Virus record (IMG/VR): IMGVR_UViG_3300037346_000623
Span: 53,266 to 117,265 of that record
Source: a virus
Strand: one strand, 5' to 3'
Length of the DNA: 64,000 nucleotides
Of the stretch, positions 36,196-50,277 are shown piece by piece. Position numbers and translations under genes: made by a program. How positions within the stretch are numbered: the stretch's first letter is position 1; every line of letters starts with the position of its first letter. Under the pieces are notes generated by a model. The model was not told the origin of the DNA and did no database searches. It worked only from the letters and a program-made list of their open reading frames with translations.

Positions 36196-36268
36196 ATCCC
36201 AGAATCGGACTCGAACCGATAACTTCTAATTTACAAAATTAGTGCTCTGCCAATTGAGCTATCCGGGA
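36196..36268 (-). tRNA. tRNA-Thr(TGT)
   Basis: CTAAT-TTTGTAA-ATTAG. Confidence 0.88.
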
Positions 36269-36276
36269 ATATTTTG

Positions 36277-36362
36277 AGGAGAGAGGGAGGATCGAACTCC
36301 ATGCAGTTACCCGCACCCGATGCTTTCCAGGCATGACCTATCACCGTTTAGAATCACTCTCC
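36277..36362 (-). tRNA. tRNA-Ser(GGA), atypical D arm
   Basis: ATGC-CTGGAAA-GCAT, long variable arm. Confidence 0.75.
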
Positions 36363-36476
36363 ATTGAGGGCTGACATATAGAATCCTTCCTATTTTCTGC
36401 GGTATAGGTACCATCATGGGCTCCGTTGACTGATTCGTCTTTATAACCCCATACGGAACAAGCAGGGTAACCAAAG

Positions 36477-36564
36477 CGGAGAGGGTGGGATTCGAACCCA
36501 CGGGAGTAATGAGCTCACACTAGATTTCAAGTCTAGGCGCTTTTGACCACTTGCGCACCTCTCC
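36477..36564 (-). tRNA. tRNA-Ser(TGA)
   Basis: CTAGA-CTTGAAA-TCTAG. Confidence 0.93.
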
Positions 36565-36595
36565 AATTTACTTTTACAATATTTCAATGAACAAT

Positions 36596-36628
36596 AAAAA
36601 AGGCCTCCTTTTTCGAGGAGACCTTTTT
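36596..36628 (-). terminator. Intrinsic terminator/attenuator in front of tRNA array 1
   Basis: AAAAAGGTCTCCT-CGAAAA-AGGAGGCCTTTTTT. Confidence 0.85.
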
Positions 36629-36651
36629 GATATTTATTATGTTACTTAATA

Positions 36652-36744
36652 TCAATACTCTCTCCTCATTACAATAGACGATTCACAAGTTGAACTCGTG
36701 TGATCTAAATGTAATGTATCTAATATGTATTGTATTTGTGACAT
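36652..36744 (-). CDS. Leader peptide 1 (MSQIQYILDTLHLDHTSSTCESSIVMRREY)
   Basis: 30-codon ORF between dual promoter and terminator; not in the ORF track. Confidence 0.7.
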   Translation of the reverse strand: MSQIQYILDTLHLDHTSSTCESSIVMRREY

Positions 36745-36756
36745 TGTTTTTATTTT

Positions 36757-36832
36757 TATAGATTTATATATCTAATTGATTTTAATATTTTATGCAAATT
36801 TAAGGAAATGTTTCGAATAAAAAAAATTATTT
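36757..36832 (-). promoter_or_regulatory. Dual promoter cassette (TAAATTTGC host-type box and GATATATA late box)
   Basis: Near-identical copy at 48352-48427. Confidence 0.7.
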
Positions 36833-36842
36833 TCAATTTTTT

Positions 36843-38333
36843 TTAAATAAATTCAAAATTTCTGAAAGATTCTAAATAATCTAGACTATAGTTTTCCTTT
36901 AATTCCTTAATTTTCTTTGAATCTTTATCCCCTACAATAGCAGGAACTGAATTGATTGTTTTTAACCCAACAGATACAGCTTTTGGAAATGGTCCCATAA
37001 GACCAGCTGAAGATAATTTATCAATTGTTTTTGATACTTTTGGGTATTCATCTGCTAAATCACCTATGAAATCTATCATTGGCTGAGCTATTGGTTTTAT
37101 GTAAGTTTCTACTAATTTCTTAATAACTTCTAAAGCAGGTCCTAAGAAAGACTTAAGCGCATTAGCTATTATTTTAGCTGCAGGTGTAACTGCAGATTTT
37201 ATGAAATTTGATATTGCTTTCGAGAATTTTTCGGGAAGTGATATAAGGAATTGAAACAATTCTGATATTTTCCCGCCAGCATAAATTATACCGTCAAATA
37301 CCTTACCTAAAAGACCTTCACAGACCATCAGAAATATTATTGATATTGTTGTAGCTGCAAGAGCAGATCCACCTGACCCCATTATCGCACCGATGCTCTT
37401 TGCTGAATTTGTTCCCATTTTACCAACTAGTTTTGATGCACCATGTGCTAGGAAATGCTCTGTGCCATGAGCAAATTGACCAGCGAATGTACCTGCCCAT
37501 TTTTCGGAAGCTTTAAGTGCCGTTGTACTTGATGCTGCTATACCGGGTATCGCTGCTTTTGGTGCCATTATAACGTCATTTAGGCCTAATAATATAGAAC
37601 ATGAACCAGCTATTACTAATGGTGCTCCTGTGGCTAGACTTTTTTTAGCCTTTTCTAGTTTTTCCATTTCCATATCTGATAAATATGACCATGCTTTTTT
37701 CATTTTATATACGCCTATACCTGTCTCAATTGCACCGGCTATTCCTAGTAGTACTGGCCCTAATATCTGACCAGCTGCTGGTATTAATGGGGTAACTGCT
37801 GCTGTCATCTGTAGTACTATTGCTACAGTTGTCCAAAAATTGGAACTAGTTGTTATTTCCTTTATGGCAGATACTATTCTTTTTGTAAATTTCCAAACCC
37901 TTTTTGCACCATCTGATATGCTATTCCATATATTTGCACTCTTGGATTTAACTAAATCTACTGCTGATTTAGCATTAGATTTAACTTTATCCCAAGCTGC
38001 TTCCATATCATCAATCATTCCTTCATTTATCGCTTGCATCGTATAATTATCTATTATAAATGCAGAACCATTTTTAAATAAAACTGTTCCTATATCGCTC
38101 TCAAGCATCAATATCTTCTCATCATCGTTGAACCAGTCTTTCTTATTCTCATAAAGCATTCCCAATTCATACATAGCATACGATTTTTCCAATAGCATCT
38201 CCTCCGATTCGGATTCAAATATCTTAGATTCAAACATATTAGAAAATTCTGTCAATGTTAGTTTCACCATTATGTCTTCACTTAACTTTCCAAAATTGCT
38301 TGATGAAAGAAATCCATCATATTTATTAATCAT
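36843..38333 (-). CDS. Helical protein with several Gly/Ala-rich hydrophobic segments
   Basis: 496 aa; candidate ejected or membrane-inserting virion protein. Confidence 0.7.
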   Translation of the reverse strand: MINKYDGFLSSSNFGKLSEDIMVKLTLTEFSNMFESKIFESESEEMLLEKSYAMYELGMLYENKKDWFNDDEKILMLESDIGTVLFKNGSAFIIDNYTMQAINEGMIDDMEAAWDKVKSNAKSAVDLVKSKSANIWNSISDGAKRVWKFTKRIVSAIKEITTSSNFWTTVAIVLQMTAAVTPLIPAAGQILGPVLLGIAGAIETGIGVYKMKKAWSYLSDMEMEKLEKAKKSLATGAPLVIAGSCSILLGLNDVIMAPKAAIPGIAASSTTALKASEKWAGTFAGQFAHGTEHFLAHGASKLVGKMGTNSAKSIGAIMGSGGSALAATTISIIFLMVCEGLLGKVFDGIIYAGGKISELFQFLISLPEKFSKAISNFIKSAVTPAAKIIANALKSFLGPALEVIKKLVETYIKPIAQPMIDFIGDLADEYPKVSKTIDKLSSAGLMGPFPKAVSVGLKTINSVPAIVGDKDSKKIKELKENYSLDYLESFRNFEFI

Positions 38334-38416
38334 TTTATAAATTTTTCCTTTATATCAAAATTATAAACAACAAAAAAGCCATTCGTATGAATGGCTTTTA
38401 TAATTTGATAATATTA

Positions 38417-39997
38417 TTAGATAATAATGGCTTCAATTTCTCTTAAAATCGCTTTTGGATCAATCTCAGCTTTTTTAATCATCTCATAGATATCAGCAGA
38501 GTAACCAAAAAGTTGAACTAATTTGCTACCTGGTTTGAACATGGTTGTACCATATCCTTGAATATCTACTGTGTAGATGAAAGGCTCACCGTGTGCAGAT
38601 TTGTAAGATTGGAAAGAACTGTTTGTAACGATTCTATCACCACCTTGTAAATCTGATATGATGAAGATACGATCATATTTACCGCTTGTCTGTAAGGTTG
38701 AGAAGATTGAACCGAAGTCTGTACCGTGGCCAACTCTACCCTGTAAGCTTAAACATGTATTTTTTATTGTATTGATACTATCACCTGGGTTATATCTAAT
38801 ACCTTCGGCTGTTGATGCGAATTGATATAAATCAGCACCGATTCCTTTTGCTAATGTTGCTCCAATAAGAGCAGCTTTATCAATACAGTGTTTGTTTATA
38901 GATTTGCCGTTCATCGTAACACCATGTCCCATTCCGTGCATAGATCCGGATGTATCAATAACAACCGCTGTTCTACCATGCGAGAATAATTCAACTAAGT
39001 TTGGTATTGCTAATTCGTAAGCCCTATTCAGGGCAGTAACAAATGGTCTAGACGCAGAAGCACTAGTTTCTTGTAAAAGAATCTCCAAAGCAATATCTAT
39101 TTGGTGAGGAAAAACCAAGGATTTCCTGATCAATTTCTCATCGATTAAAAGCTCACATGCACCGCTAACTAATTCAGAATTTGAACTTGTGTTTATGATG
39201 TTTCTTAAATTACGAAGCAATGCCAGGTAACCAATTTTTCTGGTTTTAATCAATTCAGCATAGTTGCTTTCTTTAGTCTGTGTCAATTCAACCTCAGCTT
39301 GTGCTTTAGTGATTTCCCCAGATTTAACTTTTGCAGCAACATCTTGACCAGCTTTCGAGTTTTTATCCTCAACCGTATTGAACTGTTTTAATTTACCGGT
39401 CATAAGGTCCTTGAAAACCACTTCCATTTGTGGAGTTGTTGGCTTTGGACGAACCAGGTTAACAACATCAACAAGTGAAACTGCTTTTCCTTTACCTTGA
39501 TATTTAGCTAATTCGTACGCATCTGCTGATTCTAAAGCTGCTTTGAAACCTTTCTTCATCGAATTAGGTAATGGCTTACCTGGGTTGAAGTGTTGATAAG
39601 CTGCGATAATCTCTAATACGTCATCTAAACGGTATATGATACCACCGGTTTTAGTATTCTTGTCTCTTTTGGAGAAGAATCTTCTGCCTATGGCAGAGCC
39701 AGATAGATGTTTAACTAATGATACGGATCCGAAGTGTGTTACCGATCTCTGACCAACAACTGTTCTAGCGTACACTAGGGCTTTAGCGACGAACTCTATA
39801 TCTTTCTTGGATAATTCATCAATAAGTTGAATAAATCTATTCTCTCTATCTGATAATTTTTCATAGTATGAATTGTCCAATCCAGTGGTAAGAATTGCGA
39901 TTAATTCCAATTTTGGATCATACTTCACACCTGTTCCACCTTGGTGGTTTGTAACTGTCTCTACAGTTCTTTTTACTTTTTGATTGTAACGTGACAT
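38417..39997 (-). CDS. Ro60/Rsr-like TROVE-domain RNA-binding protein with vWA domain
   Basis: N..GG N-terminus, YELAKY, SL.D...L..PKP, ALLRNLRNI, V.IDTSGSM MIDAS, IISD.Q, G.S. Confidence 0.92.
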   Translation of the reverse strand: MSRYNQKVKRTVETVTNHQGGTGVKYDPKLELIAILTTGLDNSYYEKLSDRENRFIQLIDELSKKDIEFVAKALVYARTVVGQRSVTHFGSVSLVKHLSGSAIGRRFFSKRDKNTKTGGIIYRLDDVLEIIAAYQHFNPGKPLPNSMKKGFKAALESADAYELAKYQGKGKAVSLVDVVNLVRPKPTTPQMEVVFKDLMTGKLKQFNTVEDKNSKAGQDVAAKVKSGEITKAQAEVELTQTKESNYAELIKTRKIGYLALLRNLRNIINTSSNSELVSGACELLIDEKLIRKSLVFPHQIDIALEILLQETSASASRPFVTALNRAYELAIPNLVELFSHGRTAVVIDTSGSMHGMGHGVTMNGKSINKHCIDKAALIGATLAKGIGADLYQFASTAEGIRYNPGDSINTIKNTCLSLQGRVGHGTDFGSIFSTLQTSGKYDRIFIISDLQGGDRIVTNSSFQSYKSAHGEPFIYTVDIQGYGTTMFKPGSKLVQLFGYSADIYEMIKKAEIDPKAILREIEAIII

Positions 39998-40020
39998 GAT
40001 TATAAATGTTTATATTATAA

Positions 40021-40398
40021 AATTGAGTTATCTGAAAGATAAAGCATATAGACTATGTCAAATGCAAGATCAATGTCAAAGACCTTCCTCTATCGCAAAG
40101 GCAAGGACAAAAACTAAGTCTCTGATGTTAGCCAATTATCTGCCTAGTGGTAAAGATTTCTCTTTCTCTATGGCTTTCAGTAACTTGTCTAACAATTGAG
40201 TTCTATCTCAGTTTTGTTTATTCTTATAGAAGAAGCGGAGTGATGAGAGTTCCCTGAGGATCCTCTCTAATTGCTGTATATGATTAATAGTCATTTATCT
40301 TATAAGATAATGGCTTGAAGCCATTAATAAAGGACCTTATCTCTCCGAATCAAAGCATCAGGGGAATCGGCTTTTGCTTACCCCATCAGCACCTCAAT
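40021..40398 (-). ncRNA. Putative large structured RNA between the 307-aa gene and TROVE
   Basis: 380-nt intergenic region with AATTGAG/CTCAATT ends, nested stems and hexamer periodicity. Confidence 0.5.
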
Positions 40399-40407
40399 TT
40401 ATTTTTT

Positions 40408-41331
40408 TTATTTTTCTAGTTGCTTCAAAAATTCATCAACAACTGGCTGAAATCTAGCATCAACATGAATCTTAAGATTTACCGCTTCGCCGATTTTATT
40501 TTGGCGTTCCGTCTCAAAATCGTGACTAGCTTTCTTGTAATCTGCTAACCAGGATTCTCTCTTTTTGGTATATTCATTCATCACAAGAGCATTCTTTTCA
40601 TTAACCTCAGCCTGAGCATCAGCATTGATTTTAGAAATCCTTGAATTCTCCTTGGTTACAGAATTCTTAACCTTCGATTTAAAATAATTAACCCTTTGTT
40701 CGTATCCCCTATGAAGGGCTGCTAACTCCTCGTGAGTTTTTAATAAATCCTCTGATTTATGGTGAACTTTAACTTTAATTGGAGTTTTCTTTCCTATTTC
40801 AACTTCCATGAACTCAAGGAGTTGAATTTTGGGAAGCTCAGATCTCAATCGATCTAAAGTTCCATTCTTATGAATAAATTGACCTATATGAGAAGCATAA
40901 GCCTCTGCCTCGATAAATTCATTATGCTCGTCTAGTGAAAGTTGACCCCATCCCCAATCATCAGTAACTTGTGCAGTGATTTCGGGCTGGATGTTAGCTT
41001 CTCTTACAGGTGAAGGATTTTGATCCTCATAATCAAGGTGCTCTCTCTTGATTTCATTTATTAATTCATCTTTGGCCTTGATGTTCTCCATAAGAAAAGC
41101 TTGTGTTGCATGCAACCTTGCCTTAGATTTAAGAAGTTCAACAACATCTGCAGGCAAAGGGTTTGCAGCAGTTAATTGATGATCCTCTTTAGAGATCTTT
41201 ATCGTTTTTGATGCGTTGTTGATGTCAGCTAAGGCTGCAGTTATATCCTTAGATCTTTGGTTACAGAGATTTGATACTGATTGAGCCTGTGACATTGATA
41301 ATCCTTTTTCTGCTAATGAATTTCTTTTCAT
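40408..41331 (-). CDS. Hypothetical coiled-coil protein upstream of TROVE
   Basis: 307 aa ORF. Confidence 0.85.
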   Translation of the reverse strand: MKRNSLAEKGLSMSQAQSVSNLCNQRSKDITAALADINNASKTIKISKEDHQLTAANPLPADVVELLKSKARLHATQAFLMENIKAKDELINEIKREHLDYEDQNPSPVREANIQPEITAQVTDDWGWGQLSLDEHNEFIEAEAYASHIGQFIHKNGTLDRLRSELPKIQLLEFMEVEIGKKTPIKVKVHHKSEDLLKTHEELAALHRGYEQRVNYFKSKVKNSVTKENSRISKINADAQAEVNEKNALVMNEYTKKRESWLADYKKASHDFETERQNKIGEAVNLKIHVDARFQPVVDEFLKQLEK

Positions 41332-41415
41332 AATTTCTAATTTTTGTTTTTATAATATTTTCTAAATTTACTCTAATAAAAAAGGGATTAAGTCGCTTGG
41401 CGTCCTAACCCCTTT

Positions 41416-41573
41416 ATAAAACTAACAGAGAATGATGTAAGAAGTGTTAACAATTTAATGTCTGATTATGAGTCAGATGACTTAACCACTTGTCTAAATT
41501 TCCATTTTGGCGGAAACTATCGGAGTCGAACCGATGTGCGATGTAACTTCTATACTTACTACTGTCGTATGTT
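41416..41573 (-). ncRNA. Y RNA (YrlA-like) 1, permuted tRNA module (T arm, acceptor, D arm, anticodon CAT)
   Basis: AGTAGT...GTTACATCG / CATTCTCT stem enclosing tRNA arms; near TROVE. Confidence 0.75.
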
Positions 41574-41732
41574 TTATAAGGGAATGATGTAAATAGCGTT
41601 TTTTCTAACGTGCTCTACCAACTGAGCTATTCCTCCAAATTTTTAATTTGTTTAGTGGAGGAAGATGGATTCGAACCACCGACACTGTGCTTTCAATGCA
41701 TGCGAAGTAACTATTTTACTGACCACTTATAA
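41574..41732 (-). ncRNA. Y RNA (YrlA-like) 2, permuted module (anticodon-like arm, T arm, closed acceptor, D arm)
   Basis: AGTGGT...GTTACTTCG / CATTCCCT stem; GGTGG-TTCGAAT-CCATC; TAGCTCAGTTGGTAGAGC. Confidence 0.8.
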
Positions 41733-41739
41733 TATGTTT

Positions 41740-41871
41740 TTGTAAGGGAATGACAGGACGAAAGAAATGATGTTTTTGCTGGAGTTGAACCAGCTACCTT
41801 AAATACCAAAAATTTACGATCTACCAAATGATCTAAAAAACGATGAATTTCGTTACCTTTACCACTTACAA
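41740..41871 (-). ncRNA. Y RNA-like 3, unpermuted tRNA module
   Basis: TTGTAAGTGGT...CATTCCCTTACAA stem; D, anticodon and T arms in normal order. Confidence 0.72.
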
Positions 41872-41958
41872 TAATACTTTTTCAATGAACGTTTTGTGAT
41901 TTTTATATATAGGAAAATCTTTTTTGTTTCATAAAAAATCAATATTTTTTAAAAATTT

Positions 41959-42124
41959 AACGTTCTTAGAGATATTGGGAAGAGAATGCTTAGAAAGGGA
42001 TGCTAATAGTTTTTGCGGGAGTTGAACCCGCGACCTTAAATATTAAAAATTTACGCCCTACCAACTGGGCTAAAAAACGAAGTAACCTTTCAATTTACCA
42101 CTAACCAATATTTCTAAGAACGTT
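41959..42124 (-). ncRNA. Y RNA-like 4, unpermuted tRNA module
   Basis: Long terminal stem AACGTTCTTAGA.ATATTGG; AGTGGT...GTTACTTCG / CATTCTCT. Confidence 0.72.
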
Positions 42125-42128
42125 TTTG

Positions 42129-42205
42129 TTGGATGAATGGGAATCGAACCCACATGTGACCAGTTAACCTTTCTATCGCGTATCAGGCGAAGGGTATATC
42201 ATCCA
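42129..42205 (-). ncRNA. D-arm-less tRNA-like RNA, anticodon GAT
   Basis: TGGATGA/TCATCCA acceptor, TCGC-CTGATAC-GCGA, T arm, no D stem. Confidence 0.7.
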
Positions 42206-42214
42206 ATATTTTTG

Positions 42215-42286
42215 TGACTCTAGAGGGATTCGAACCCCCATCTTCTGGGCCGTAACCAGGTGTTCTATCCGTTGAACTATAAAGCC
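42215..42286 (-). tRNA. tRNA-Arg(ACG)
   Basis: CTGG-TTACGGC-CCAG. Confidence 0.9.
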
Positions 42287-42295
42287 TATTAAATT

Positions 42296-42461
42296 AATTC
42301 ACCAAGCCTACCATCTACAAGTAGCAACAAATGTGATAATCCTTTCGTTGACTAGCGCTATACGCAAAGTTGCAACTAATCAGGCACTTAGATGACGCCT
42401 TCCTTTCTCACGTATTAAGGTTACACTTCAGAAATTTACCTCTACGGTCACTTGGTGAATT
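42296..42461 (-). ncRNA. Putative structured RNA closed by terminal stem
   Basis: AATTCACCAAG...CTTGGTGAATT perfect 11-bp ends. Confidence 0.55.
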
Positions 42462-42471
42462 ATTTTTTTAT

Positions 42472-42645
42472 TTATAATCGGCTCTGAAGAATTCCTATCT
42501 CCCTATTCAATCTCCTGACGTCAGAGTCTGTTAATGAAATTTTAGTATCCCTTGTACCTTTTTCTGTTTTAACCCCGCTTTTTAATTGTTCCTCCAACAT
42601 AGACAATGCTCTTGTTTGTCTGGATCTTCTCTGGATTGTTGCCAT
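42472..42645 (-). CDS. Small basic protein MATIQRRSRQ... (57 aa)
   Basis: Hand-translated ORF behind the promoter box at 42671. Confidence 0.6.
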   Translation of the reverse strand: MATIQRRSRQTRALSMLEEQLKSGVKTEKGTRDTKISLTDSDVRRLNREIGILQSRL

Positions 42646-42702
42646 TTTTTGTATGTTTAATTATTATAATGTAAATATATGATATTTTTTCGTGATAAAA
42701 AA

Positions 42703-43164
42703 TTAATTTGTAATTTTTTCAATAATAATTTCCTTAACTTTAACTGTGCTCGCCATACCTGGGAACTTTTTATTAAAAGCGCCGATAACTTTACCTGTTA
42801 AAACCTGTGCATTTAATCCGAGCCCATCCATTTCTGAGAGTAGCTCCATAACAGCAGATGTTATTTCTGAATCCCCCATTTGTTTAGGAAGATAAGATTC
42901 AATCGGTTTTAATTCGGCTGTTTCTTGTTCTACAAGATCCATTCTACCGGCCTTTGTAAATTCCTCTACTGATTGTTTTCTTTGTTTGATTGTGCTTATA
43001 ACAATCTTTAAAACATCAGCATCACTAAGCTCTGTTCCAGCTGGACCAGCTTTTTCAGATTCTATTATTTTGGATTTTAGACCACTTAAAGCGCTTTTTG
43101 CTACTGTGTCTTTTGATTTGAATGCTGCAATGTAATCAGCATTGATTTTTTCCTTTAGTGTCAT
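42703..43164 (-). CDS. GatB/YqeY domain protein (start MTLKEKI)
   Basis: L.E.I..D...A.K.KD, IKQR..S..EF..AGR.DL..QE..EL..IE.YLPKQM. Confidence 0.9.
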   Translation of the reverse strand: MTLKEKINADYIAAFKSKDTVAKSALSGLKSKIIESEKAGPAGTELSDADVLKIVISTIKQRKQSVEEFTKAGRMDLVEQETAELKPIESYLPKQMGDSEITSAVMELLSEMDGLGLNAQVLTGKVIGAFNKKFPGMASTVKVKEIIIEKITN

Positions 43165-43179
43165 ATTTTCAATTTTTAG

Positions 43180-43248
43180 TGGAATATTGGGACTCGAACC
43201 CTGCCTCCCACTGTTTAGTGGTTGCACATTCCCTTGTGCTTTTATCCC
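43180..43248 (-). ncRNA. Degenerate tRNA-like RNA
   Basis: T arm GGG-TTCGAGT-CCC and D stem; anticodon arm with a 4-nt loop. Confidence 0.5.
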
Positions 43249-43251
43249 TTG

Positions 43252-43331
43252 TGGATTAGACAGGAATCGAACCTGCTTACTGGCTGTCCCCTAAAAAGTG
43301 AACTGCTACTCTTCCGTTGAGTTACTAACCC
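43252..43331 (-). ncRNA. tRNA-like RNA with extended irregular anticodon arm
   Basis: Good acceptor, D and T arms. Confidence 0.6.
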
Positions 43332-43395
43332 GTGGCCGGGGTTTATGAATATTTATTAATCACCTCCAACGGGCCGACCCTTGGTGACATATTAT

Positions 43396-43785
43396 TTAGA
43401 TTGCTCCTTCTCCGCCGCTTATTAAATATAGCACAGATCTAATATTTCTCTGCTCGTTACCAAGAGCTTCTATTTTAATTCTCTTCTCCTGTACAGATCT
43501 TTGTGTTTTAGCAAGATCTGTCTTAGCAACAATTAATTCATGATTGTCTGCAGTTTTTTCAATAAAAGCAGCATCTCTTGCCTCTGCATTGCTATAAGCT
43601 TTTTTACCAGATCCATCTACAGTAGAACCTATTTCAGCTTTAATTACAGATTCAATCTGTGTGATCTTCTCTGATTGAGCTTGTGATGTTTCTGTTAATG
43701 CTAATAACCCCAACTGGGCTTCGATAATCTTTGCAGGAATCTCTAATAATCTATTAACTAATGATTCCAATCTCTCCTTTTCCAT
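43396..43785 (-). CDS. Hypothetical coiled-coil protein
   Basis: 129 aa ORF. Confidence 0.8.
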   Translation of the reverse strand: MEKERLESLVNRLLEIPAKIIEAQLGLLALTETSQAQSEKITQIESVIKAEIGSTVDGSGKKAYSNAEARDAAFIEKTADNHELIVAKTDLAKTQRSVQEKRIKIEALGNEQRNIRSVLYLISGGEGAI

Positions 43786-43806
43786 TTCAAAATGTTTAAA
43801 AATTAG

Positions 43807-43895
43807 TGATTAGAACAGGAATCGAACCTATACACGACCGAGGATACCCTACTTACGTAGATCGACGACCTATACTGCCATTATATTATCCAATC
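43807..43895 (-). ncRNA. tRNA-like RNA whose anticodon arm ends in a CTAC-GTAA-GTAG tetraloop
   Basis: GATTGGA/TCTAATC acceptor, D and T arms. Confidence 0.6.
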
Positions 43896-43982
43896 TATTT
43901 ATAGCTCACAAAGGACACAGCTTTAAGCTCAAAAATGTTCGGAATTGAGCTATAAATGGGGTCTTTATGAGCTTCATTTTAT

Positions 43983-44177
43983 TAAAATCCAATTCAGACT
44001 TTAGACCGCTACTAACACCCTGTTTCAATACTCTTGAATTTGTAGCTGAAGGTTTCCAAGCCTTCCCTCGACCGCCGTCGCGTGCGCTTACACTGGCTTA
44101 ATCCTACCCTCTTGGGATGACTTTCGTCTGTTCATCTTATTCACCCTTTTTTATTCTTACGAACTAATTGGATTTTA
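43983..44177 (-). ncRNA. Putative ~195-nt structured RNA
   Basis: TAAAATCCAATT...AATTGGATTTTA ends, GC-rich core, GAC-GAAA-GTC tetraloop. Confidence 0.55.
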
Positions 44178-44855
44178 TTCTATTATCTTAATCAAATCTT
44201 CCAAATTATATGCTATTCGCATATCTAGGGATTCTCTTTTATATATGTCTATTTTTTCTAGCCAGTATTCGTAATTCTTTCCTAGCCAATCTTTTCTTTT
44301 TTCCCTATTTATACCATCCAATTCGATCCAGATATCCTGGTCTATTAAATACACATCGCTAATTTTAGATGAATTGGGTATATTTTTATGAGCTTCAAAT
44401 TTTATATTTTTTGATTCAAGATATTCAAAACAAATTTTTTCAAGATTTGAATCATATCTGGTACCATACCCTGTCGTACCTATTTTACCAAATCCTCCTT
44501 TTCTACCAATATCTCTCATCCGATTCCTCTCATTTATATCTGAGAATCTTATTTTGTTTTTTTCCCTAATATTTTCTCTGTACCCTGTACTATTCCAATT
44601 TAATTTTCTTGAGCATGACATAGAACAGCTTTCTTGATCTTTTCTTTTCCAGGAAGCTATAAATTCATTCCTACAATATGCACAATTTTTTACTACTGCA
44701 GGATTCCCTGATCCTGTTATAGCTTTACTTATTTTTAGGCTGGTTGAAATTCTATTTAATGAGGTGCTGTATGATCTGCTGCACATAGGTGAACAGAATC
44801 TCCCTGAGCCATATTCGCCACCATGATCGGAATTACATTTTTCGCAAATATACAT
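44175..44855 (-). CDS. Putative homing endonuclease (Cys-rich N-terminus, PD-(D/E)xK-like C-terminus)
   Basis: CEKC...FCS..C, CAYC...CS.SC; S.LE...D...IWIELDG. Confidence 0.7.
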   Translation of the reverse strand: MYICEKCNSDHGGEYGSGRFCSPMCSRSYSTSLNRISTSLKISKAITGSGNPAVVKNCAYCRNEFIASWKRKDQESCSMSCSRKLNWNSTGYRENIREKNKIRFSDINERNRMRDIGRKGGFGKIGTTGYGTRYDSNLEKICFEYLESKNIKFEAHKNIPNSSKISDVYLIDQDIWIELDGINREKRKDWLGKNYEYWLEKIDIYKRESLDMRIAYNLEDLIKIIE

Positions 44856-44907
44856 TTTTTAACTTTTATTCTATATATCTTCGAACCATCGAATCTAAGA
44901 AAGCTTG

Positions 44908-44992
44908 TAGTCCCACCCGGATTCGAACCGGGATTATACTTCTCGTCTCTACTTTGTAGGAGTAGGATGTTTAACCGTTACACCATGGGACT
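44908..44992 (-). tRNA. Atypical tRNA, anticodon TAC (Val?), C33 and long variable region
   Basis: CTACT-CCTACAA-AGTAG; perfect acceptor and T arm. Confidence 0.6.
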
Positions 44993-45024
44993 TGCTGTTG
45001 GTATTTCTACCAGCTTATTACTTT

Positions 45025-45577
45025 CTATTTTACTTTCTTTTCTTTGGGTGCTTTCACCTTAGATGAAAATATTTCTTTTACCATTCCGTCGTGGTAGAAT
45101 ATTCTGGAATCAGGATAGGTCCAACCGTATTGATCAGCAAGTACCTGTGCATAATCCTCTATCGAATTAAGTTTAACTGATCCTTCAATTATTAGAGATC
45201 CGTATTTTTTGCCTATTGATGGTTCTTTAACCCATTCGAATTCTGAATATCTTTTCTTTAGTGATGCCAATGCTTCATCTGTTGACGTCTTTCCGTCAAC
45301 CCATAACTCTACTGGATATGACGAATCTTTAGCACTTGTCATCGGAGTTAAGTCAATAGCTGAATATGCACTATACCAACGATCCCCACAACATGGGCAA
45401 TCTGAGCCCTCATCAACACCATTCCAATAACCTCCAAGATCTTCAGCGATGGAATTTGCTTCATCTGAAGTATTTGCTTCTATGAATAATCTGTGACATA
45501 GTTTATCATCAACCCCCACTATTGTTTTGTGATATCTCGTAAAATTTTAAACCTGTCTCTTCTTTTTTTCTTGTCAT
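45025..45577 (-). pseudogene. Phage hypothetical gene with a frameshift near 45515
   Basis: MTRKKEETGLKFYEISQNNSGG* then VDDKLCHRLFIEA...CPCCGDRW in another frame. Confidence 0.6.
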
Positions 45578-45587
45578 CTTTTTTATT

Positions 45588-45818
45588 TTAAAAATAAATC
45601 CATCCTGCACATCTCTTTGGATACTTTGGTGAGAAATCTATGAAATCCTGATTTCCATCTCTAGTGAATCTATAGATTGATACTTTTTCTTTTGTTCTGT
45701 TTGCTTTGCTAAATTGTCTAACAAAATCATTGGGAACGTTATTCCAATAATGATATCTGCCTGGTGTGTGCCGTCTTCTTTGTGCCTCGGTCCAAGACCA
45801 TCTCTTTTTTGCTCTCAT
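45588..45818 (-). CDS. Small basic Arg/Trp-rich protein preceded by a uORF
   Basis: 76 aa ORF. Confidence 0.7.
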   Translation of the reverse strand: MRAKKRWSWTEAQRRRHTPGRYHYWNNVPNDFVRQFSKANRTKEKVSIYRFTRDGNQDFIDFSPKYPKRCAGWIYF

Positions 45819-45865
45819 TTTGTATTAGGTTATTTTACCTAATACATGTCGAATTTCTTTTTCAT
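45816..45865 (-). promoter_or_regulatory. uORF MKKKFDMY-TAG plus hairpin over the downstream initiation region
   Basis: TGTATTAGGT...ACCTAATACA then AAATG. Confidence 0.7.
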
Positions 45866-45881
45866 TGTTTAATTATTTTTG

Positions 45882-45954
45882 TGGAGACAGTGATAATCGA
45901 AATCACCCAAGAACATTGCAAGTGTTCTTCGCCAGCCTTGGTACATGTGCCCCC
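45882..45954 (-). tRNA. tRNA-Ala(TGC)
   Basis: GAACA-CTTGCAA-TGTTC, G3:U70. Confidence 0.8.
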
Positions 45955-45962
45955 AATTTTAG

Positions 45963-46035
45963 TAGCGTGTGCAGGGATCGAACCTGCGACCTAGAGTTTA
46001 TGATTCTCTCGCTCTGCCAACTGAGCTAACACGCC
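45963..46035 (-). tRNA. tRNA-Met(CAT)
   Basis: ATCATAA loop, GGCGTGT acceptor. Confidence 0.85.
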
Positions 46036-46076
46036 AATTCATAGGTTTTTAATTGAACCTATGAAAACAATCACTT

Positions 46077-46310
46077 TTACTGGTGATGTTTGACATATCT
46101 GCCAAATCTATCAACTCTAACCTCCATCTTGGTGAGGTTAAAATTCCAGTTTTGAAAAACACCCAAGCCAGATCTTTGTCTTGCTTGTTTAATAGCAGAT
46201 TGCTCTGCCTTTTCACGACCTTCTTCCGTAGTCTCTACGAAAAAAGTGGGAGCCTGAACACCAGTCTTACTGGTAGGAACTACTCTCCAAATTCTCAAAT
46301 TTTGAGTCAT
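46077..46310 (-). CDS. Small basic protein preceded by a uORF
   Basis: 77 aa ORF. Confidence 0.75.
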   Translation of the reverse strand: MTQNLRIWRVVPTSKTGVQAPTFFVETTEEGREKAEQSAIKQARQRSGLGVFQNWNFNLTKMEVRVDRFGRYVKHHQ

Positions 46311-46359
46311 AATATTTAGCTAATAGCTAAAACTATGTTGAATCGATGATTGTTTTCAT
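46308..46359 (-). promoter_or_regulatory. uORF MKTIIDST-TAG plus hairpin
   Basis: TTTAGCTA-T-TAGCTAAA just before the ATG. Confidence 0.55.
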
Positions 46360-46382
46360 GTTCTTAATTTATTTTAATTTTG

Positions 46383-46454
46383 AGCAGGTGGAGGGAATCG
46401 AACCCTCATATCCAGATTGGAAGTCTGGCATACTAACCGTTGTACTACACCTGC
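46383..46454 (-). tRNA. tRNA-Gly(TCC)
   Basis: CCAGA-CTTCCAA-TCTGG. Confidence 0.93.
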
Positions 46455-46501
46455 TTATTGGAGCCGGCACGATGATTCAATCGTGGATCTTCCGGCATGT
46501 G

Positions 46502-46574
46502 AGCGATAGATCAGATTCGAACTGACGATCTTTTCCTTGGCAAGGCAACGCTCTACCAACTGAGCTACTATCGC
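46502..46574 (-). tRNA. tRNA-Gly(GCC)
   Basis: TTGCCAA loop, U73. Confidence 0.9.
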
Positions 46575-46665
46575 ATGATCGGGTAGCGTCAAACTAAGTT
46601 TAATGTTAGTTTTATACCCGCTGGTTACATTTCCACAAAGGAAAGAGGCTTTACCAGGCACCCTG

Positions 46666-46739
46666 AGGGCGGACTGGGACTCGAACCCAGGACCATCTGA
46701 TTAACAGTCAGAAGCTCTAACCAACTGAGCTATCCACCC
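46666..46739 (-). tRNA. tRNA-Asn(GTT)
   Basis: TCTGA-CTGTTAA-TCAGA. Confidence 0.9.
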
Positions 46740-46792
46740 TTTTTAATCTTAGTTATTGCTAATAAATAAGTTTCCTTAAAATTAGCTATTTG

Positions 46793-46867
46793 TGGGACCG
46801 GAGGGACTCGAACCCTCATCTCTGGATTTTCAGTCCAGCGCGAACTGACCATCTGCGCTACAGTCCC
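46793..46867 (-). tRNA. tRNA-Phe(GAA)
   Basis: CTGGA-CTGAAAA-TCCAG. Confidence 0.92.
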
Positions 46868-46879
46868 TTTTGATTTTTG

Positions 46880-46953
46880 CTCTTCTGGCTGGATTTGAAC
46901 CAGCAACCCTCACCTTAACAGGGTGTCGCTCTAACCATTGGAGCTACAGAAGA
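46880..46953 (-). tRNA. tRNA-Asn(GTT), second copy
   Basis: CACC-CTGTTAA-GGTG, G73. Confidence 0.9.
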
Positions 46954-46959
46954 ATGTTG

Positions 46960-47070
46960 TGGAGTAGCTGGAATTGAACCATACTATCTGGGATAAGTAC
47001 TAATAGTCTTACTCTTGCTATCTAGAATCTGAAGCAGACCCTATCAGACATTTCCCAACCCTTTTACTCC
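46960..47070 (-). ncRNA. Oversized tRNA-like RNA
   Basis: GGAGTA/TACTCC-A acceptor and TGG-TTCAATT-CCA T arm around a ~70-nt insert. Confidence 0.5.
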
Positions 47071-47075
47071 GTTTG

Positions 47076-47156
47076 TGCCAGCAGAGGGACTCGAACCCCC
47101 GAACCCTTAGGGAACAGATTTACAGTCTGCAGTAATTGCCGCTATACGATACTGGC
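47076..47156 (-). tRNA. tRNA-Tyr(GTA)
   Basis: GCAGA-CTGTAAA-TCTGT, variable arm. Confidence 0.92.
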
Positions 47157-47164
47157 TTTTTTTG

Positions 47165-47238
47165 TGACCCCGATGGGATTCGAACCCATGACTCCCAAAT
47201 TAAAAGTTTGGTACTCTAGCCAGCTGAGTTACGAGGTC
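47165..47238 (-). tRNA. tRNA-Lys(TTT)
   Basis: CCAAA-CTTTTAA-TTTGG. Confidence 0.93.
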
Positions 47239-47412
47239 AGTATAATAAAGTTGTTTTTATTTAATAAACCTGCCCGGTTTATTATGATTTTTTAACTTTA
47301 GTACATTGATTTAGTTTCCGTTATGTCAAAGATCATATTTTTTAACATTGCAAATATATGAAATGCTTTCGAATTAAAAAAATATTTTTTATTTTTTTTT
47401 TTTTTATTTTTG

Positions 47413-47485
47413 TTGGGATACAAGGAATCGAACCTTGATTGCGTGGACCAAAACCACGTGTAATGAGCCATTATACCATATCCCA
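47413..47485 (-). tRNA. tRNA-Gln(TTG)
   Basis: CGTGG-TTTTGGT-CCACG. Confidence 0.92.
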
Positions 47486-47494
47486 TTTTTATTT

Positions 47495-47724
47495 TCTACT
47501 TCTTAAAATATTTCATATCAATACCCTTTGCAAATCCATCATTGATATAATCGTCAAGCTCATCTGGATTTATTCTTTTGTTTACCATAAGTAAATCATT
47601 CTTTATCCATAATTTTTATCTCCTGCTTGAGAAACCGAATTTACTTTCTCCATCATTTCCTTTTCTTGCCATTTCTATACTTTAGTTTAGCTTATACATC
47701 CAAACTAAAGTACGAAAAAGCGCC
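47495..47724 (-). pseudogene. Internally deleted remnant of a Seg-like homing endonuclease cassette
   Basis: Leader and ATGGCAAGAAAAG shared with the 35054 gene; C-terminal WIKND...KRINPDELDDYINDGF.KG fragment. Confidence 0.7.
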
Positions 47725-47726
47725 AG

Positions 47727-47797
47727 CACGAGCTGAAGGACTCGAACCTTCATCATCGGTTTTGGAGACCGGTATGCTACCATTGCACCAAGCCCGT
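47727..47797 (-). tRNA. tRNA-Trp(CCA)
   Basis: CGGT-CTCCAAA-ACCG. Confidence 0.93.
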
Positions 47798-47801
47798 GTG
47801 T

Positions 47802-48029
47802 TTATCTAGTTGCTTTATGAAACTCGTTATTATCTAAAGCCTTCCTGATATACCTCATAAAGAAGATGGCATTATCCTCTGCTAATAATGTTGCTTCACC
47901 TATATCATCCAATCTAACAGGAAATGTGTGATCGGTGTCTTCAGCGAAAACGCTATAATAAGCGATATTATTCTTTAAATGCGAGAATCTAACTTTGTTG
48001 TCTTTTACAATTTCTTTTATTGTTGCCAT
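47802..48029 (-). CDS. Hypothetical phage protein
   Basis: 75 aa ORF ending FMRYIRKA. Confidence 0.75.
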   Translation of the reverse strand: MATIKEIVKDNKVRFSHLKNNIAYYSVFAEDTDHTFPVRLDDIGEATLLAEDNAIFFMRYIRKALDNNEFHKATR

Positions 48030-48045
48030 TTCATTTATTTATTTG

Positions 48046-48121
48046 TCGGGATACAGAGACTCGAACTCTGATGATGTCCTGCTCCCAAAGCAGGCGACTT
48101 AGCCAATTAGTCCACATCCCG
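48046..48121 (-). tRNA. tRNA-Pro(TGG)
   Basis: CCTGC-TTTGGGA-GCAGG. Confidence 0.92.
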
Positions 48122-48140
48122 TTAATTTTAATTTCAGTCC

Positions 48141-48174
48141 AAAAAAAAACTCCAGATCTTTTAAGATCCGGAGT
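48141..48174 (-). terminator. Intrinsic terminator/attenuator in front of tRNA array 2
   Basis: ACTCCGGATCT-TAAA-AGATCTGGAG followed by T9. Confidence 0.9.
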
Positions 48175-48209
48175 AAAAATATTTAATGCTTATTTGACTA
48201 GTGCTTACA

Positions 48210-48338
48210 TTAAATTATATCGTGACCTCCAGATCCCTTGCTATATCCATTATACCATTTGGCAATGCCCACCTGATTAAAGGGTGCAATGCTCTGCGGC
48301 ATAAACGGTTTTACAATATTTCTAAAAGTTGTTTTCAT
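48210..48338 (-). CDS. Leader peptide 2 (MKTTFRNIVKPFMPQSIAPFNQVGIAKWYNGYSKGSGGHDII)
   Basis: 42-codon ORF between dual promoter and terminator; not in the ORF track. Confidence 0.7.
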   Translation of the reverse strand: MKTTFRNIVKPFMPQSIAPFNQVGIAKWYNGYSKGSGGHDII

Positions 48339-48351
48339 TGTGTTTTTAAAT

Positions 48352-48427
48352 TATAGATTTATATATCTAATTGATTTTAATATTTTATGTAAATTTATAA
48401 AAAAGTTTCGGATAAAAAAAATTATTT
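48352..48427 (-). promoter_or_regulatory. Dual promoter cassette, copy 2
   Basis: Near-identical to 36757-36832. Confidence 0.7.
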
Positions 48428-48443
48428 TTAATATATCAGGAAT

Positions 48444-48869
48444 TTATTTTATATAACTGTGATTCCATTTGGCTCTTATGCATGTCTGAGCTTTTCTTCT
48501 TTCCTTTAGATACATGTTGATATAACCCATCATATTACCACATCCTATTGGGTTTGCACTATGAACATAACATTGTGGTATATCCAGATTTGATTCTCTT
48601 GCTAAATTAATTAACCATTTAACAACATCCATACCGGTTTTTTCTGTTATTGAATCATAGCATATGTTGTAATTGAACCTTGTGTTTTTAAAGAAGTGAT
48701 CTATTGCACAAGGACCAAGATCATGATCTAATGATATTAATTCAACGTTATTTAGGCCTGTATTAAGGATCAATTTAACAAATTCATCATAATCTCTTAC
48801 AGTAACCCATTCTTTTCCTAGTGGATGCTCTAATGGTGTTCTAGTATCGTCTAAGTAGATTGATATCAT
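48444..48869 (-). CDS. Cyclic-phosphate-processing receiver domain protein
   Basis: IYLDD.R.P, W..VR.YDEF, ISLDHDLG, TG.D...W, VHSANP.G. Confidence 0.8.
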   Translation of the reverse strand: MISIYLDDTRTPLEHPLGKEWVTVRDYDEFVKLILNTGLNNVELISLDHDLGPCAIDHFFKNTRFNYNICYDSITEKTGMDVVKWLINLARESNLDIPQCYVHSANPIGCGNMMGYINMYLKERRKAQTCIRAKWNHSYIK

Positions 48870-48882
48870 ATGAATTTTTTTG

Positions 48883-48964
48883 TGATCTGAAAGAGATTCG
48901 AACTCTCACGCTTATTAGCACCGCCCCCTCAAGACGGCGTGTCTACCAATTCCACCACCAGACC
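48883..48964 (-). tRNA. tRNA-Leu(GAG)
   Basis: CCGTC-TTGAGGG-GGCGG. Confidence 0.9.
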
Positions 48965-48984
48965 TTTTCATTTTTTATATTTTG

Positions 48985-49057
48985 TACCCGGGGAGGGACT
49001 CGAACCCTCAAAATCTAGATCCTAAATCTAGCGCGTATACCATTCCGCCACCCGGGC
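48985..49057 (-). tRNA. tRNA-Leu(TAG), short variable region
   Basis: CTAGA-TTTAGGA-TCTAG. Confidence 0.88.
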
Positions 49058-49064
49058 AGGGTTA

Positions 49065-49313
49065 CTATTTATACTGTGTAATCCTATTATATTTCCAGGT
49101 TCTGTAAGATCTAGCATTAAACGTAGAAATTAATTTACCGTTACCATGTCTTCCCTTTTTTTTACTAGTCATGGGTGAACAATCATAATAGAAGCTTCCA
49201 CTTCTTTTGCAACATATAAAGCAATAATCATATTCATGCTTTAGGTATGTTAATTTATACTCCCTTGGAGTTAAACAATCGTTGAGCTTTGCTCTGTTTC
49301 TGTTTTTTGACAT
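49065..49313 (-). CDS. Small basic Cys-containing protein preceded by a uORF
   Basis: 82 aa, ends R.WK..R..QYK. Confidence 0.75.
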   Translation of the reverse strand: MSKNRNRAKLNDCLTPREYKLTYLKHEYDYCFICCKRSGSFYYDCSPMTSKKKGRHGNGKLISTFNARSYRTWKYNRITQYK

Positions 49314-49361
49314 TTTGCATTGGTTATATTAAACCTAATGCATATCGAATTGTTTTTTCAT
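49311..49361 (-). promoter_or_regulatory. uORF MKKQFDMH-TAG plus hairpin
   Basis: TGCATTAGGTT...AACCAATGCA then AAATG. Confidence 0.7.
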
Positions 49362-49374
49362 TTTTAGTTATTTG

Positions 49375-49448
49375 TGACCCCGGAAGGGTTCGAACCTTCG
49401 ACCCTCAGATTAGAAATCTGATGCTCTATCCAACTGAGCTACGGAGCC
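49375..49448 (-). tRNA. tRNA-Arg(TCT)
   Basis: TCAGA-TTTCTAA-TCTGA. Confidence 0.94.
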
Positions 49449-49525
49449 ATTATTGTTTTTAATTATATTGCAAATATATGAAATCCTTTCGGAATAAAAA
49501 AATAATTTTTGATATTTTTCTAAAT

Positions 49526-49554
49526 TAAAAAGGGTCTAGTAAACTAGACCCTTT
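49526..49554. terminator. Hairpin terminator
   Basis: AAAAGGGTCTAGT-AA-ACTAGACCCTTT. Confidence 0.8.
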
Positions 49555-49575
49555 AGATATAAACATTATTCTGAT

Positions 49576-49740
49576 TTATGTCTTTGTTGTGTCTACTTTA
49601 ATTGTTGCTGTATCTACTTCTGTAGAATCAACTTTAGTTGTATCAACTGCTGCATCGGTAGAATTTTTAGCATCTACATTTTTGCATGAGTTTATTCCCA
49701 GTGGGAGTAGTAATACAAGTAAGAATAATAGCCTTTTCAT
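49576..49740 (-). CDS. 54-aa lipoprotein with D-S/T repeats
   Basis: MKRLLFLLVLLLPLGINSC-KNVDAKNSTDAAVDTTKVDSTEVDTATIKVDTTKT; late box at 49769. Confidence 0.75.
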   Translation of the reverse strand: MKRLLFLLVLLLPLGINSCKNVDAKNSTDAAVDTTKVDSTEVDTATIKVDTTKT

Positions 49741-49824
49741 TTTTAGTAATTTTAATTTTTAGTAATTTTATATATCAATAATTATATCAAAATTTTGAAT
49801 TTTGTTTCAATTATCAAAATTTTT

Positions 49825-50277
49825 CTATTTACATATGGAATCTGCAATAGATATGGACCAGTTAGATGCACTTTTATATCTAGCCTTTAGTCCCATCCCC
49901 TCTATTAAGCCGACTGCGGATCTTAGAAGCGTGTTTGATTGGTGTCTTGGATCAGGATTAAGATCAATGTCAATAAAGTCTGGGGTCTTCCCACAATTCT
50001 CCATTATCCAATGTGCTGTTTCAACACTTAATTCGATCTCTTTCCACAATCTTTCATACCTAGCTTGGATTCTAGGTACAATCATCTTGTTATAAAGCAC
50101 GTGTCCACCCTTATTCGGTTGATGTAATACAATAACCGTAGCGAATGTAGTGGTGCCGTTATGATTCTGTGAATCACACCCTATATAGATCTTGTCTTCA
50201 GAGTTGTTTGCCATCCAATCATCTAAGTAGCTAGATAGGTCGATGGTCTTTTTCGTCGTTAGGCTTTTCCATTCCAT
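49825..50277 (-). CDS. RNase H-like YkuK family protein
   Basis: IGCDSQ, F.TVI..H...GG, RL..E...S, IDID.N, AD. Confidence 0.85.
   Translation of the reverse strand: MEWKSLTTKKTIDLSSYLDDWMANNSEDKIYIGCDSQNHNGTTTFATVIVLHQPNKGGHVLYNKMIVPRIQARYERLWKEIELSVETAHWIMENCGKTPDFIDIDLNPDPRHQSNTLLRSAVGLIEGMGLKARYKSASNWSISIADSICK

Follow-up and report, generated by a model that had tools for sequence, protein, structure and literature searches.

Short upstream reading frames that enter hairpins ahead of small basic protein genes in a phage tRNA array: a probable case of translational coupling

Three leader modules in a phage tRNA array

Why should three small genes in the transfer RNA (tRNA) array of a phage each be preceded by a reading frame of eight codons that runs into a hairpin? 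The question is raised by a stretch of 64,000 nucleotides (nt) from IMG/VR record IMGVR_UViG_3300037346_000623 (positions 53,266 to 117,265 of that record; hereafter the window), the minus strand of which has 27 tRNA genes grouped in an array that extends from 33.7 to 49.5 kb. All three short upstream open reading frames (uORFs, or mini-frames) are located inside this array, and each forms a module with its hairpin and the gene of a small basic protein (P1, P2 or P3). As judged from their sequences, each of these modules is probably a cis-acting translational coupling device that works by RNA unfolding on the transcripts of the tRNA array, in a host whose ribosomes make no use of Shine-Dalgarno sequences. 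Their parts are as follows:

45839..45865, minus strand: uORF1, MKKKFDMY-TAG, 8 sense codons, an MKK-type leader
45821..45846, minus strand: hairpin 1, 10-bp stem with 6-nt loop, holds the TAG and ends 2 nt 5' of the P1 ATG
45588..45818, minus strand: P1, 76 amino acids (aa), basic, behind uORF1
46333..46359, minus strand: uORF2, MKTIIDST-TAG, 8 sense codons, a P2-type leader
46308..46337, minus strand: hairpin 2, in which the P2 start codon pairs with the TAG and the sense codon before it
46077..46310, minus strand: P2, 77 aa, basic, behind uORF2
49335..49361, minus strand: uORF3, MKKQFDMH-TAG, 8 sense codons, an MKK-type leader
49309..49346 (core stem 49316-49342), minus strand: hairpin 3, with the TAG inside, core ends 2 nt 5' of the P3 ATG
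49065..49313, minus strand: P3, 82 aa, basic, behind uORF3

A preliminary description of the region had reported three eight-codon frames ending in TAG, a minority stop, with a hairpin beside each and a small basic protein downstream, and these observations were all confirmed. The three stops are each situated within a hairpin or at its base, and every one of these hairpins folds better than all of 200 shuffles, the minimum free energies being -12.5 kcal/mol (z = -6.4) for hairpin 1, -11.5 kcal/mol (z = -3.2) for hairpin 2 and -11.9 kcal/mol (z = -3.9) for hairpin 3. A weak outer 3-bp helix of hairpin 1 reaches the U and G of the P1 ATG and an outer 4-bp helix of hairpin 3 pairs the U and G of the P3 ATG; the helix of hairpin 2 crosses the ATG. 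Stop and gene start are 20-22 nt apart, and the isoelectric points of the three proteins are 10.6, 10.6 and 9.9, respectively. Of the coding-strand ORFs in this genome that measure 80 aa or more from stop to stop, 87 end in TAA, 26 in TAG and 9 in TGA. uORF1 and uORF3 are clearly related in DNA sequence, and uORF2 is of a different type. The DNA pattern that had been given for the three frames has exactly three matches in the window and none in each of 100 dinucleotide-preserving shuffles; across the 117-kb phage contig of which the window is part, no other intergenic uORF-hairpin-ORF module stands out.

A search of GenBank phage DNA with the 5.5-kb region retrieved tRNA genes only. Among the relatives in IMG/VR are two complete genomes that have terminal repeats, one of 430 kb and one of 434 kb, and the 430-kb relative (G001) possesses only three strong modules, all within a 20-kb tRNA island. 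P1 has three relatives in IMG/VR; the leader (uORF and hairpin) is letter-identical in all three, with the P1 protein only 80-82% identical. In four close relatives uORF3 varies at codon 3 (AAA or AAG, synonymous), codon 4 (K, Q or R) and codon 5 (F or Y), and its D-M-H-TAG end and the stem are invariant.

Conservation of the frames and hairpins

P2 is widely conserved in large uncultured phages, with 75 IMG/VR loci. The upstream regions of 74 P2 loci, that of the window included, were examined and comprise 33 distinct leaders; left out of the counts were L029, for which there are 24 nt of upstream sequence only (a TAG and a hairpin being visible), and L082, which is partial. The order of mini-frame stop, hairpin and ATG is found at all 74 loci. 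The stop is TAG at 73 of them and TAA at one, and the proximal frame consists of 8-10 codons; for L010 and L011, where an anchored script had taken an internal TAA, the stop proper is the TAG that lies 2 nt upstream of the helix. The peptides are diverse (MKNxxPNS[TS], MR[SA]I[PQ]S[ST]P[MI], MKTIIDS[TS] and MKAI[ET]DSS, among others). Since they are so unlike one another, Asp at position 6 is not a trait of this family, within which it is confined to the closest relatives of the window. In the MKNxxPNST leaders the proline codon occurs as CCC, CCG and CCA, which points to selection on the translated frame.

Pairing of the P2-type hairpin is likewise retained, by at least seven different stem sequences according to the anchored script. 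In a gapless subset of nine leaders 99.1% of cells pair, compared with 31-40% when partners are slid, and 4 of 12 pairs are altered on both sides; it is on the anchored script and this nine-sequence subset that the covariation evidence rests. Pairing extends to the main AUG in 29 of 29 distinct P2-type leaders, where its mean unpaired probability is 0.09.

For the MKK type, the DNA pattern with its stop left open gave 71 matches, in 25 of which a stop directly follows codon 8 (TAG 23, TAA 1, TGA 1); a hairpin, an ATG and a small ORF then follow in 20 of the 23 TAG matches. The P3 superfamily was gathered from IMG/VR by protein alignment (A5), blind to the leader, and a mini-frame of the form MKKxxDx[HYL] with a hairpin was present at 74 of the best 80 of its 113 relatives, giving 51 distinct leaders. 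These end in TAG (37), TGA (13) or TAA (1). Asp is found at position 6 in 42 of the 43 that have eight codons (GAC 26, GAT 16), so that this residue, described earlier as common to the frames, stands as a mark of the MKK type and falls for the P2 family. Codon 3 is AAA in 20, AAG in 15 and CAA in 7 leaders. M1, K2, K/Q3, D6 and [HYL]8 are kept through synonymous codons, and codons 4, 5 and 7 vary freely. The hairpin has the stop codon inside it and ends 2-7 nt 5' of the ATG, and the stretch from -15 to -1 is structured in 50 of the 51 leaders: unlike that of the P2 type, it covers the landing region and not the AUG itself. The design is widespread in uncultured large phages, being present at 73 IMG/VR loci of the P2 family and, within the best 80 of 113 relatives, at the 74 loci of the P3 superfamily.

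Geometry of the leaders and proposed mechanism

Counted from the start codon of the uORF (uAUG), the first paired base lies at +17 to +20 in 45 of 51 MKK-type leaders and at +22 to +29 in P2-type leaders. These distances are just beyond the reach of a ribosome standing on the uAUG, which would explain a frame length of 8-10 codons. Around the uAUG the RNA is open (unpaired probability 0.78-0.85). Of the distinct leaders, 42 of 51 of the MKK type and 27 of 29 of the P2 type have all three bases of the stop codon paired in the stem. Between stop and ATG there are 11-31 nt across leaders (13-31 nt in the geometry set of distinct leaders). uORF and gene stand in no fixed relative frame, the gap modulo 3 being distributed 10/23/18 among the 51 MKK-type and 17/8/4 among the 29 P2-type leaders. 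Frame, hairpin, geometry and a stop other than TAA are conserved.

In this phage and G001, Shine-Dalgarno-like 4-mers are not enriched ahead of genes (6-7%) and leaders are A-rich. Given this lack of enrichment, structure should weigh heavily on initiation; in systems without Shine-Dalgarno sequences, secondary structure is reported to tune initiation (PMC6847099). Translation control in bacteria and phages of this kind has been little explored.

In the mechanism that we propose, ribosomes would load at the mini-frame, whose open, A-rich start would lie near an RNA 5' end formed by a promoter start or by the trailer left after tRNA excision. The start region of the small gene would meanwhile be locked, either because its AUG is paired (P2 type) or because the 15 nt ahead of it are paired (MKK type). 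The mini-frame would be just long enough to allow initiation without the ribosome touching the hairpin and, because its stop is placed within the 5' arm or at its base, a ribosome arriving at that stop would have melted the stem. The terminating ribosome would then re-initiate 11-31 nt further on, or a new ribosome would land before the stem re-forms, and the small basic protein would be made only from RNAs with ribosomes loading at the mini-frame. The features by which coupling through RNA unfolding is recognised are present: an upstream ORF that is short and has been preserved as such, a downstream start region covered by inhibitory structure, and an upstream stop placed where a terminating ribosome would disrupt that structure. 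From these we infer translation of the mini-frame and a dependence of the downstream gene upon it. If so, the cassettes would be compact natural devices tying the translation of a gene to ribosome loading at a neighbouring mini-frame. The translational switch proposed in the preliminary description agrees with this in so far as the frame is kept, the hairpins covary and the geometry fits a ribosome opening the hairpin; an exclusive link to release factor 1 (RF1) and the universality of Asp6 and TAG did not hold across the family.

Several points weigh against coupling. The AUG itself is paired in only 19 of the 51 MKK-type leaders, and repression in this type assumes that a ribosome working independently of Shine-Dalgarno sequences is stopped by a hairpin that ends 2-7 nt ahead of the AUG, in a host whose identity is inferred only. 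A ribosome at the stop, 11-31 nt from the AUG, could also occlude it, so that the sign of the effect (activation or repression) is derived from the logic of the design only. RNAalifold predicted 0 pairs on a MAFFT alignment of 26 P2 leaders, because the alignment sets unlike stems out of register. Among public sequencing runs, only one, which may be the source sample, contains the stretch, and others contain small shares of it; contigs from four RNA-labelled runs cover P1, P2 and P3 of relatives with their mini-frames, and these contigs show neither transcription nor 5' ends. Finally, the loci are related by descent and the counts given here are not independent, for which reason a Fisher test on the TAA contrast described below overstates significance.

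Stop codon bias and termination

Taken together, 80 distinct leaders end in TAG (65), TGA (13) or TAA (2), and the genes behind them have a TAA stop in 57 of 80 cases. Plus-strand ORFs of at least 100 aa in G001 end in TAA 349 times, in TAG 75 times and in TGA 45 times. The conserved stop rule is 'not TAA', rather than TAG: what survives of the TAG stop described earlier is the near-absence of TAA, and TGA at the end of 13 of the 51 distinct MKK-type leaders sets its limit. Because of these TGA stops, an RF1-specific sensor does not fit the whole family.

TAA is the only stop codon read by both release factors. Its avoidance, together with the conserved MKKxxDx[HYL] peptide, suggests that the speed of termination matters. 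A refinement of coupling along these lines, which takes up an idea of the preliminary description, is that the peptide and a stop read by a single factor slow the release of the ribosome, the output reporting the termination capacity of the cell, be it the supply of RF1 or RF2 or stress on the ribosomes; this is possible but on balance unlikely. How the stop is paired bears on it differently in the two types. In P2-type hairpins the G of the TAG forms a G-U pair (28 of 31 by the anchored script and 9 of 9 in the gapless subset); TAA would pair at least as well and is almost absent, so that structure does not explain the preference for TAG there. In MKK-type hairpins, however, the G of the stop sits in a G-C stem pair (37 of 37 TAG and 11 of 13 TGA leaders), and in a short, AT-rich stem such a pair means that stem stability could explain part of the avoidance, or may by itself select against TAA. 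The three TAA cases (L016, L066 and L252, two distinct leaders) have kept the stem by a matching change in the other arm.

The contrast between leaders and downstream genes in the use of TAA also speaks for slowed release, as does the peptide, the residues of which are maintained through synonymous changes in the MKK type while codons 4, 5 and 7 vary; P2-type peptides, in contrast, are diverse. A precedent for arrest at a stop codon is PepNL, a short nascent peptide that acts at UGA (PMC11890864). TAG and TGA are read by different factors, however, and no single factor would be sensed family-wide. Neither release-factor genes nor peptidyl-tRNA hydrolase genes were found in five phage records, four of which are rated complete. 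If termination kinetics do play a role here, the near-absence of TAA and the MKKxxDx[HYL] peptide could expose it.

Association with tRNA genes

Features that lie immediately upstream of the modules, or ahead of the tRNA runs, are:

49374..49448, minus strand: tRNA-Arg(tct), ends 12 nt 5' of the uORF3 ATG
46382..46454, minus strand: tRNA-Gly(tcc), ends 22 nt 5' of the uORF2 ATG
about 45881..45954 (placed by eye), minus strand: tRNA-like stretch, degenerate, with tRNA-Met on one side and the uORF1 ATG about 15 nt away on the other
49467..49490 and 47347..47370, minus strand: promoter-like 24-nt box ahead of tRNA runs (the copy at 49467..49490 ahead of tRNA-Arg)

The degenerate stretch, for which neither ARAGORN nor Rfam makes a call in the window, aligns with an intact tRNA in relatives, called tRNA-Ala(tgc) by ARAGORN in G001. 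The promoter-like box has two copies in the window and none in shuffles, and is presumably akin to Bacteroidota promoters; a two-box promoter pattern gave 0 matches in the window. The box at 49467-49490 is likely to be the start of a transcript carrying uORF3 and P3.

Linkage to tRNA genes extends to the relatives. In 36 of 74 P3-type modules a same-strand tRNA has its end no more than 60 nt (mostly 12-16 nt) from the uAUG that follows. At 41 of 73 P2 loci one ends 62-77 nt before the P2 ATG, and all 73 have a tRNA within 3 kb. Other copies of the module follow promoter-like sequence without a tRNA. In phages, the cassette leader accompanies several small basic proteins that do not resemble one another, moving with each as a unit, and it always lies in or near a tRNA array.

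Such positions invite the question of whether the frame is translated at all. A single strand rich in A and U followed by a hairpin resembles endonuclease sites or 5' stabilisers, and with about half of the modules beginning 12-16 nt behind a tRNA, hairpin and A-rich stretch might serve tRNA processing or RNA stability, the frame being incidental. This is very unlikely. An in-frame ATG stands 8-10 codons 5' of the stop in all seven P2 leader types and at 74 of the 80 P3-type loci, and conserved residues show synonymous variation. Modules occur behind promoter-like sequence lacking a tRNA and in a bacterial chromosome with no tRNA nearby (see below). Screening of window positions 33000-50000 with cmscan against Rfam 15 (E <= 0.01) gave no covariance-model match on the three modules; it listed tRNA and tRNA-Sec models and a few sub-threshold matches (STnc230 and two plastid untranslated region families). 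There is no run of T 3' of the hairpins, and a terminator scan, which lists 49529-49554, 48149-48174 and two others, lists none at any module. The hairpins are on these grounds not transcription attenuators, since leader-peptide attenuators of that class have a terminator hairpin followed by a T-run.

A tRNA at 42006-42080 (minus strand) of the window has the anticodon tta and is a candidate ochre suppressor. Its presence raises the idea that a phage suppressor reads through the uORF stop and switches the small gene on or off. The tRNA is, however, a paralogue of the tRNA-Gln(ttg) of the phage and a private one-letter variant: in two relatives, with DNA 98% and 95% identical, the corresponding tRNA reads ttg. 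G001 has 28 tRNAs, no suppressor among them, and has kept all three modules. These two facts make gating by read-through extremely unlikely, and further evidence points the same way. Around the modules of 83 records scanned, the only other suppressor candidate was a tca tRNA, in L072. The genetic code is the standard one, with 83.5% of the genome taken up by ORFs of 100 aa or more. All three frames are used beyond the stop, as the unfixed gap shows; suppressor-gated leaders would be marked by a fixed frame and a co-occurring suppressor, and neither is shared by the family. The genome with the tta tRNA otherwise uses TAA as its main stop. The tca tRNA of L072 (3741-3825) was called tRNA-SeC by ARAGORN and may be an opal suppressor.

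Occurrence outside phages

The cassette was found twice in Pontibacter saemangeumensis JCM 17926 (Bacteroidota), at 9508-10399 of L279 and 300-1162 of L280. The leaders are MKKAFDKH and MKKEFDKH, each with a TAG stop, a hairpin of -12.7 kcal/mol and a 59-aa protein. No tRNA was found near either cassette. Each copy directly follows type II toxin-antitoxin genes whose toxin is of the RNase type: one lies approximately 120 nt downstream of a YefM-YoeB pair and the other just behind a HicA toxin gene and a 137-aa ORF; as two copies in one genome, they make this neighbourhood a lead only. A close search with the Pontibacter protein retrieved its own two copies and two short partial matches only. 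Alignment of P3 against cellular genomes gave five loci, all on metagenome-bin contigs that may be phage DNA. Among such contigs, L282 (375 kb, Bacteroidota bin) and L273 (171 kb, Methanobacterium bin) carry the cassette and are probably large phage contigs. The two natural Pontibacter copies make the design bench-testable in a cultured bacterium.

Two further explanations draw on this neighbourhood. In one, mini-frame and hairpin together would form a double lock that keeps a possibly harmful protein off until another event, for example an RNA cut in the stem or at the stop codon, opens it. In its favour are the strongly basic character of the proteins, the possible occlusion of the AUG by a ribosome that terminates 11-31 nt ahead of it, and the position of both Pontibacter copies behind YoeB or HicA toxin-antitoxin pairs; but the hairpin alone would be enough for repression, a stop exactly in the 5' arm is the layout of an activating leader, and the toxin-antitoxin evidence comes from the two copies of a single genome. 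This explanation is considered improbable.

In the other, which we regard as a quite improbable extension, the stop would be bait for trouble in the ribosomal A site. A ribosome-dependent, RNA-cutting toxin of the RelE/YoeB kind would cleave the mRNA in the stop codon and so sever the 5' arm of the hairpin, along with, in P2-type leaders, the partner bases of the AUG. Production of the small protein, as a counter-measure, would then be irreversible. RelE-type toxins prefer UAG. The leads for this idea are the stop in the 5' arm, the near-absence of TAA and the Pontibacter copies behind YoeB and HicA pairs, and if it were true the cassettes would be switches in phage tRNA arrays that are triggered by toxins or by failure of termination.

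Comparison with known leaders

The leaders of cat, cmlA and erm consist of a short ORF entering a hairpin that masks the next start, which is opened by a held ribosome. They need a drug-stalled ribosome and control resistance genes. The outputs of the phage leaders, in contrast, are small proteins without a family match, and no resistance gene is under their control, P1-P3 having no Pfam or PHROGs match.

Coupling of the kind proposed here has published counterparts. RNA unfolding and ribosome scanning are the two coupling models in the literature (PMC12548453), and in the cases given there (genes VII/IX of phage f1, coat/lysis of MS2 and rpmI-rplT of E. coli) a finishing ribosome likewise opens an inhibitory structure and the distance from stop to start is likewise short. 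The leaders described here differ from these cases in being dedicated mini-ORFs of 8-10 codons with no likely product of their own, situated behind tRNAs, without Shine-Dalgarno sequences and with a strongly non-TAA stop. The nearest single case is mgtQ, an 8-residue ORF between mgtC and mgtB of Salmonella, translation of which frees the start region of the next gene and in which acidic residues of the peptide matter, as may the Asp of the phage leaders (PMC8092293). mgtQ involves alternative stem-loops and a Shine-Dalgarno site, with Asp2 and Glu5 destabilising the ribosome, whereas the phage leaders have one hairpin with the stop inside, a single Asp at codon 6 and no sequence relation to mgtQ.

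PepNL (PMC11890864) and TnaC (PMC8092293) resemble the phage leaders in that a conserved short peptide and a particular stop set the stay of the ribosome; the published cases use UGA and have different outputs, and the phage leaders are shorter than the 14-residue PepNL, their stall being putative. Re-initiation leader genes, a pattern reported from Bacteroidetes among others, are also short and are proposed to raise expression by feeding ribosomes to a nearby structural gene (PMC4833913). That proposal is a statistical one, in which the distance preferred is 10-11 bp and there is no hairpin; the leaders here have 11-31 nt and a conserved hairpin. A search of the full-text literature, the coverage of which excluded supplementary files, found no description of these phage leaders.

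The downstream proteins

The preliminary description had speculated that the outputs are ribosome-rescue or anti-defence factors, and no link to either was found. The 89 protein clusters of P2 include none that is named. Its AlphaFold2 (AF2) model has a predicted local distance difference test score (pLDDT) of 88 and a generic beta-beta-alpha-beta-beta fold, with no match in the PDB by Foldseek at E <= 0.001; the best Z by VIA-align was 6.5 (PaaB, PurS and ribosomal proteins), inside the noise band of the tool. The P3 model is of low confidence (pLDDT 58), and P3 matched only unnamed clusters of the ESM Atlas, with scores of at most 0.85. Members of the P3 superfamily have a common C-terminal tail, W-K-x-N-R-K-T-Q-W/Y-K, and a KEYK-like N-terminal motif; with the exception of the P1 family, the proteins behind MKK-type leaders share both.

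Other features of the contig and the tRNA island

The contig has 33% G+C and a completeness of 41% (CheckV), and codes for a terminase, a UvsX-like recombinase and a DnaB-like helicase. Proteins encoded in the tRNA island of the window include:

34623-35054: GIY-YIG endonuclease
38417-39997: TROVE (Ro-like) domain protein
42703-43227: YqeY-like protein
44175-44855: HNH-like protein
48444-48869: cREC_REC (cyclic-phosphate processing receiver) protein
49825-50277: RNaseH-like protein

Together, these six proteins have a flavour of RNA repair and quality control. Three weak tRNA matches and one tRNA-Sec-like match below the gathering score were given by Rfam on the minus strand (43252-43331, 43807-43895, 41448-41503 and 36277-36363); they are absent from the ARAGORN calls and may be decayed or unusual tRNAs. 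At approximately 35055-35100 (minus strand) a 9-codon frame with a TAA stop enters a perfect 13-bp hairpin (-9.3 kcal/mol) 7 nt 5' of the GIY-YIG gene, this leader being unlike those of the three modules in both its sequence and its stop.

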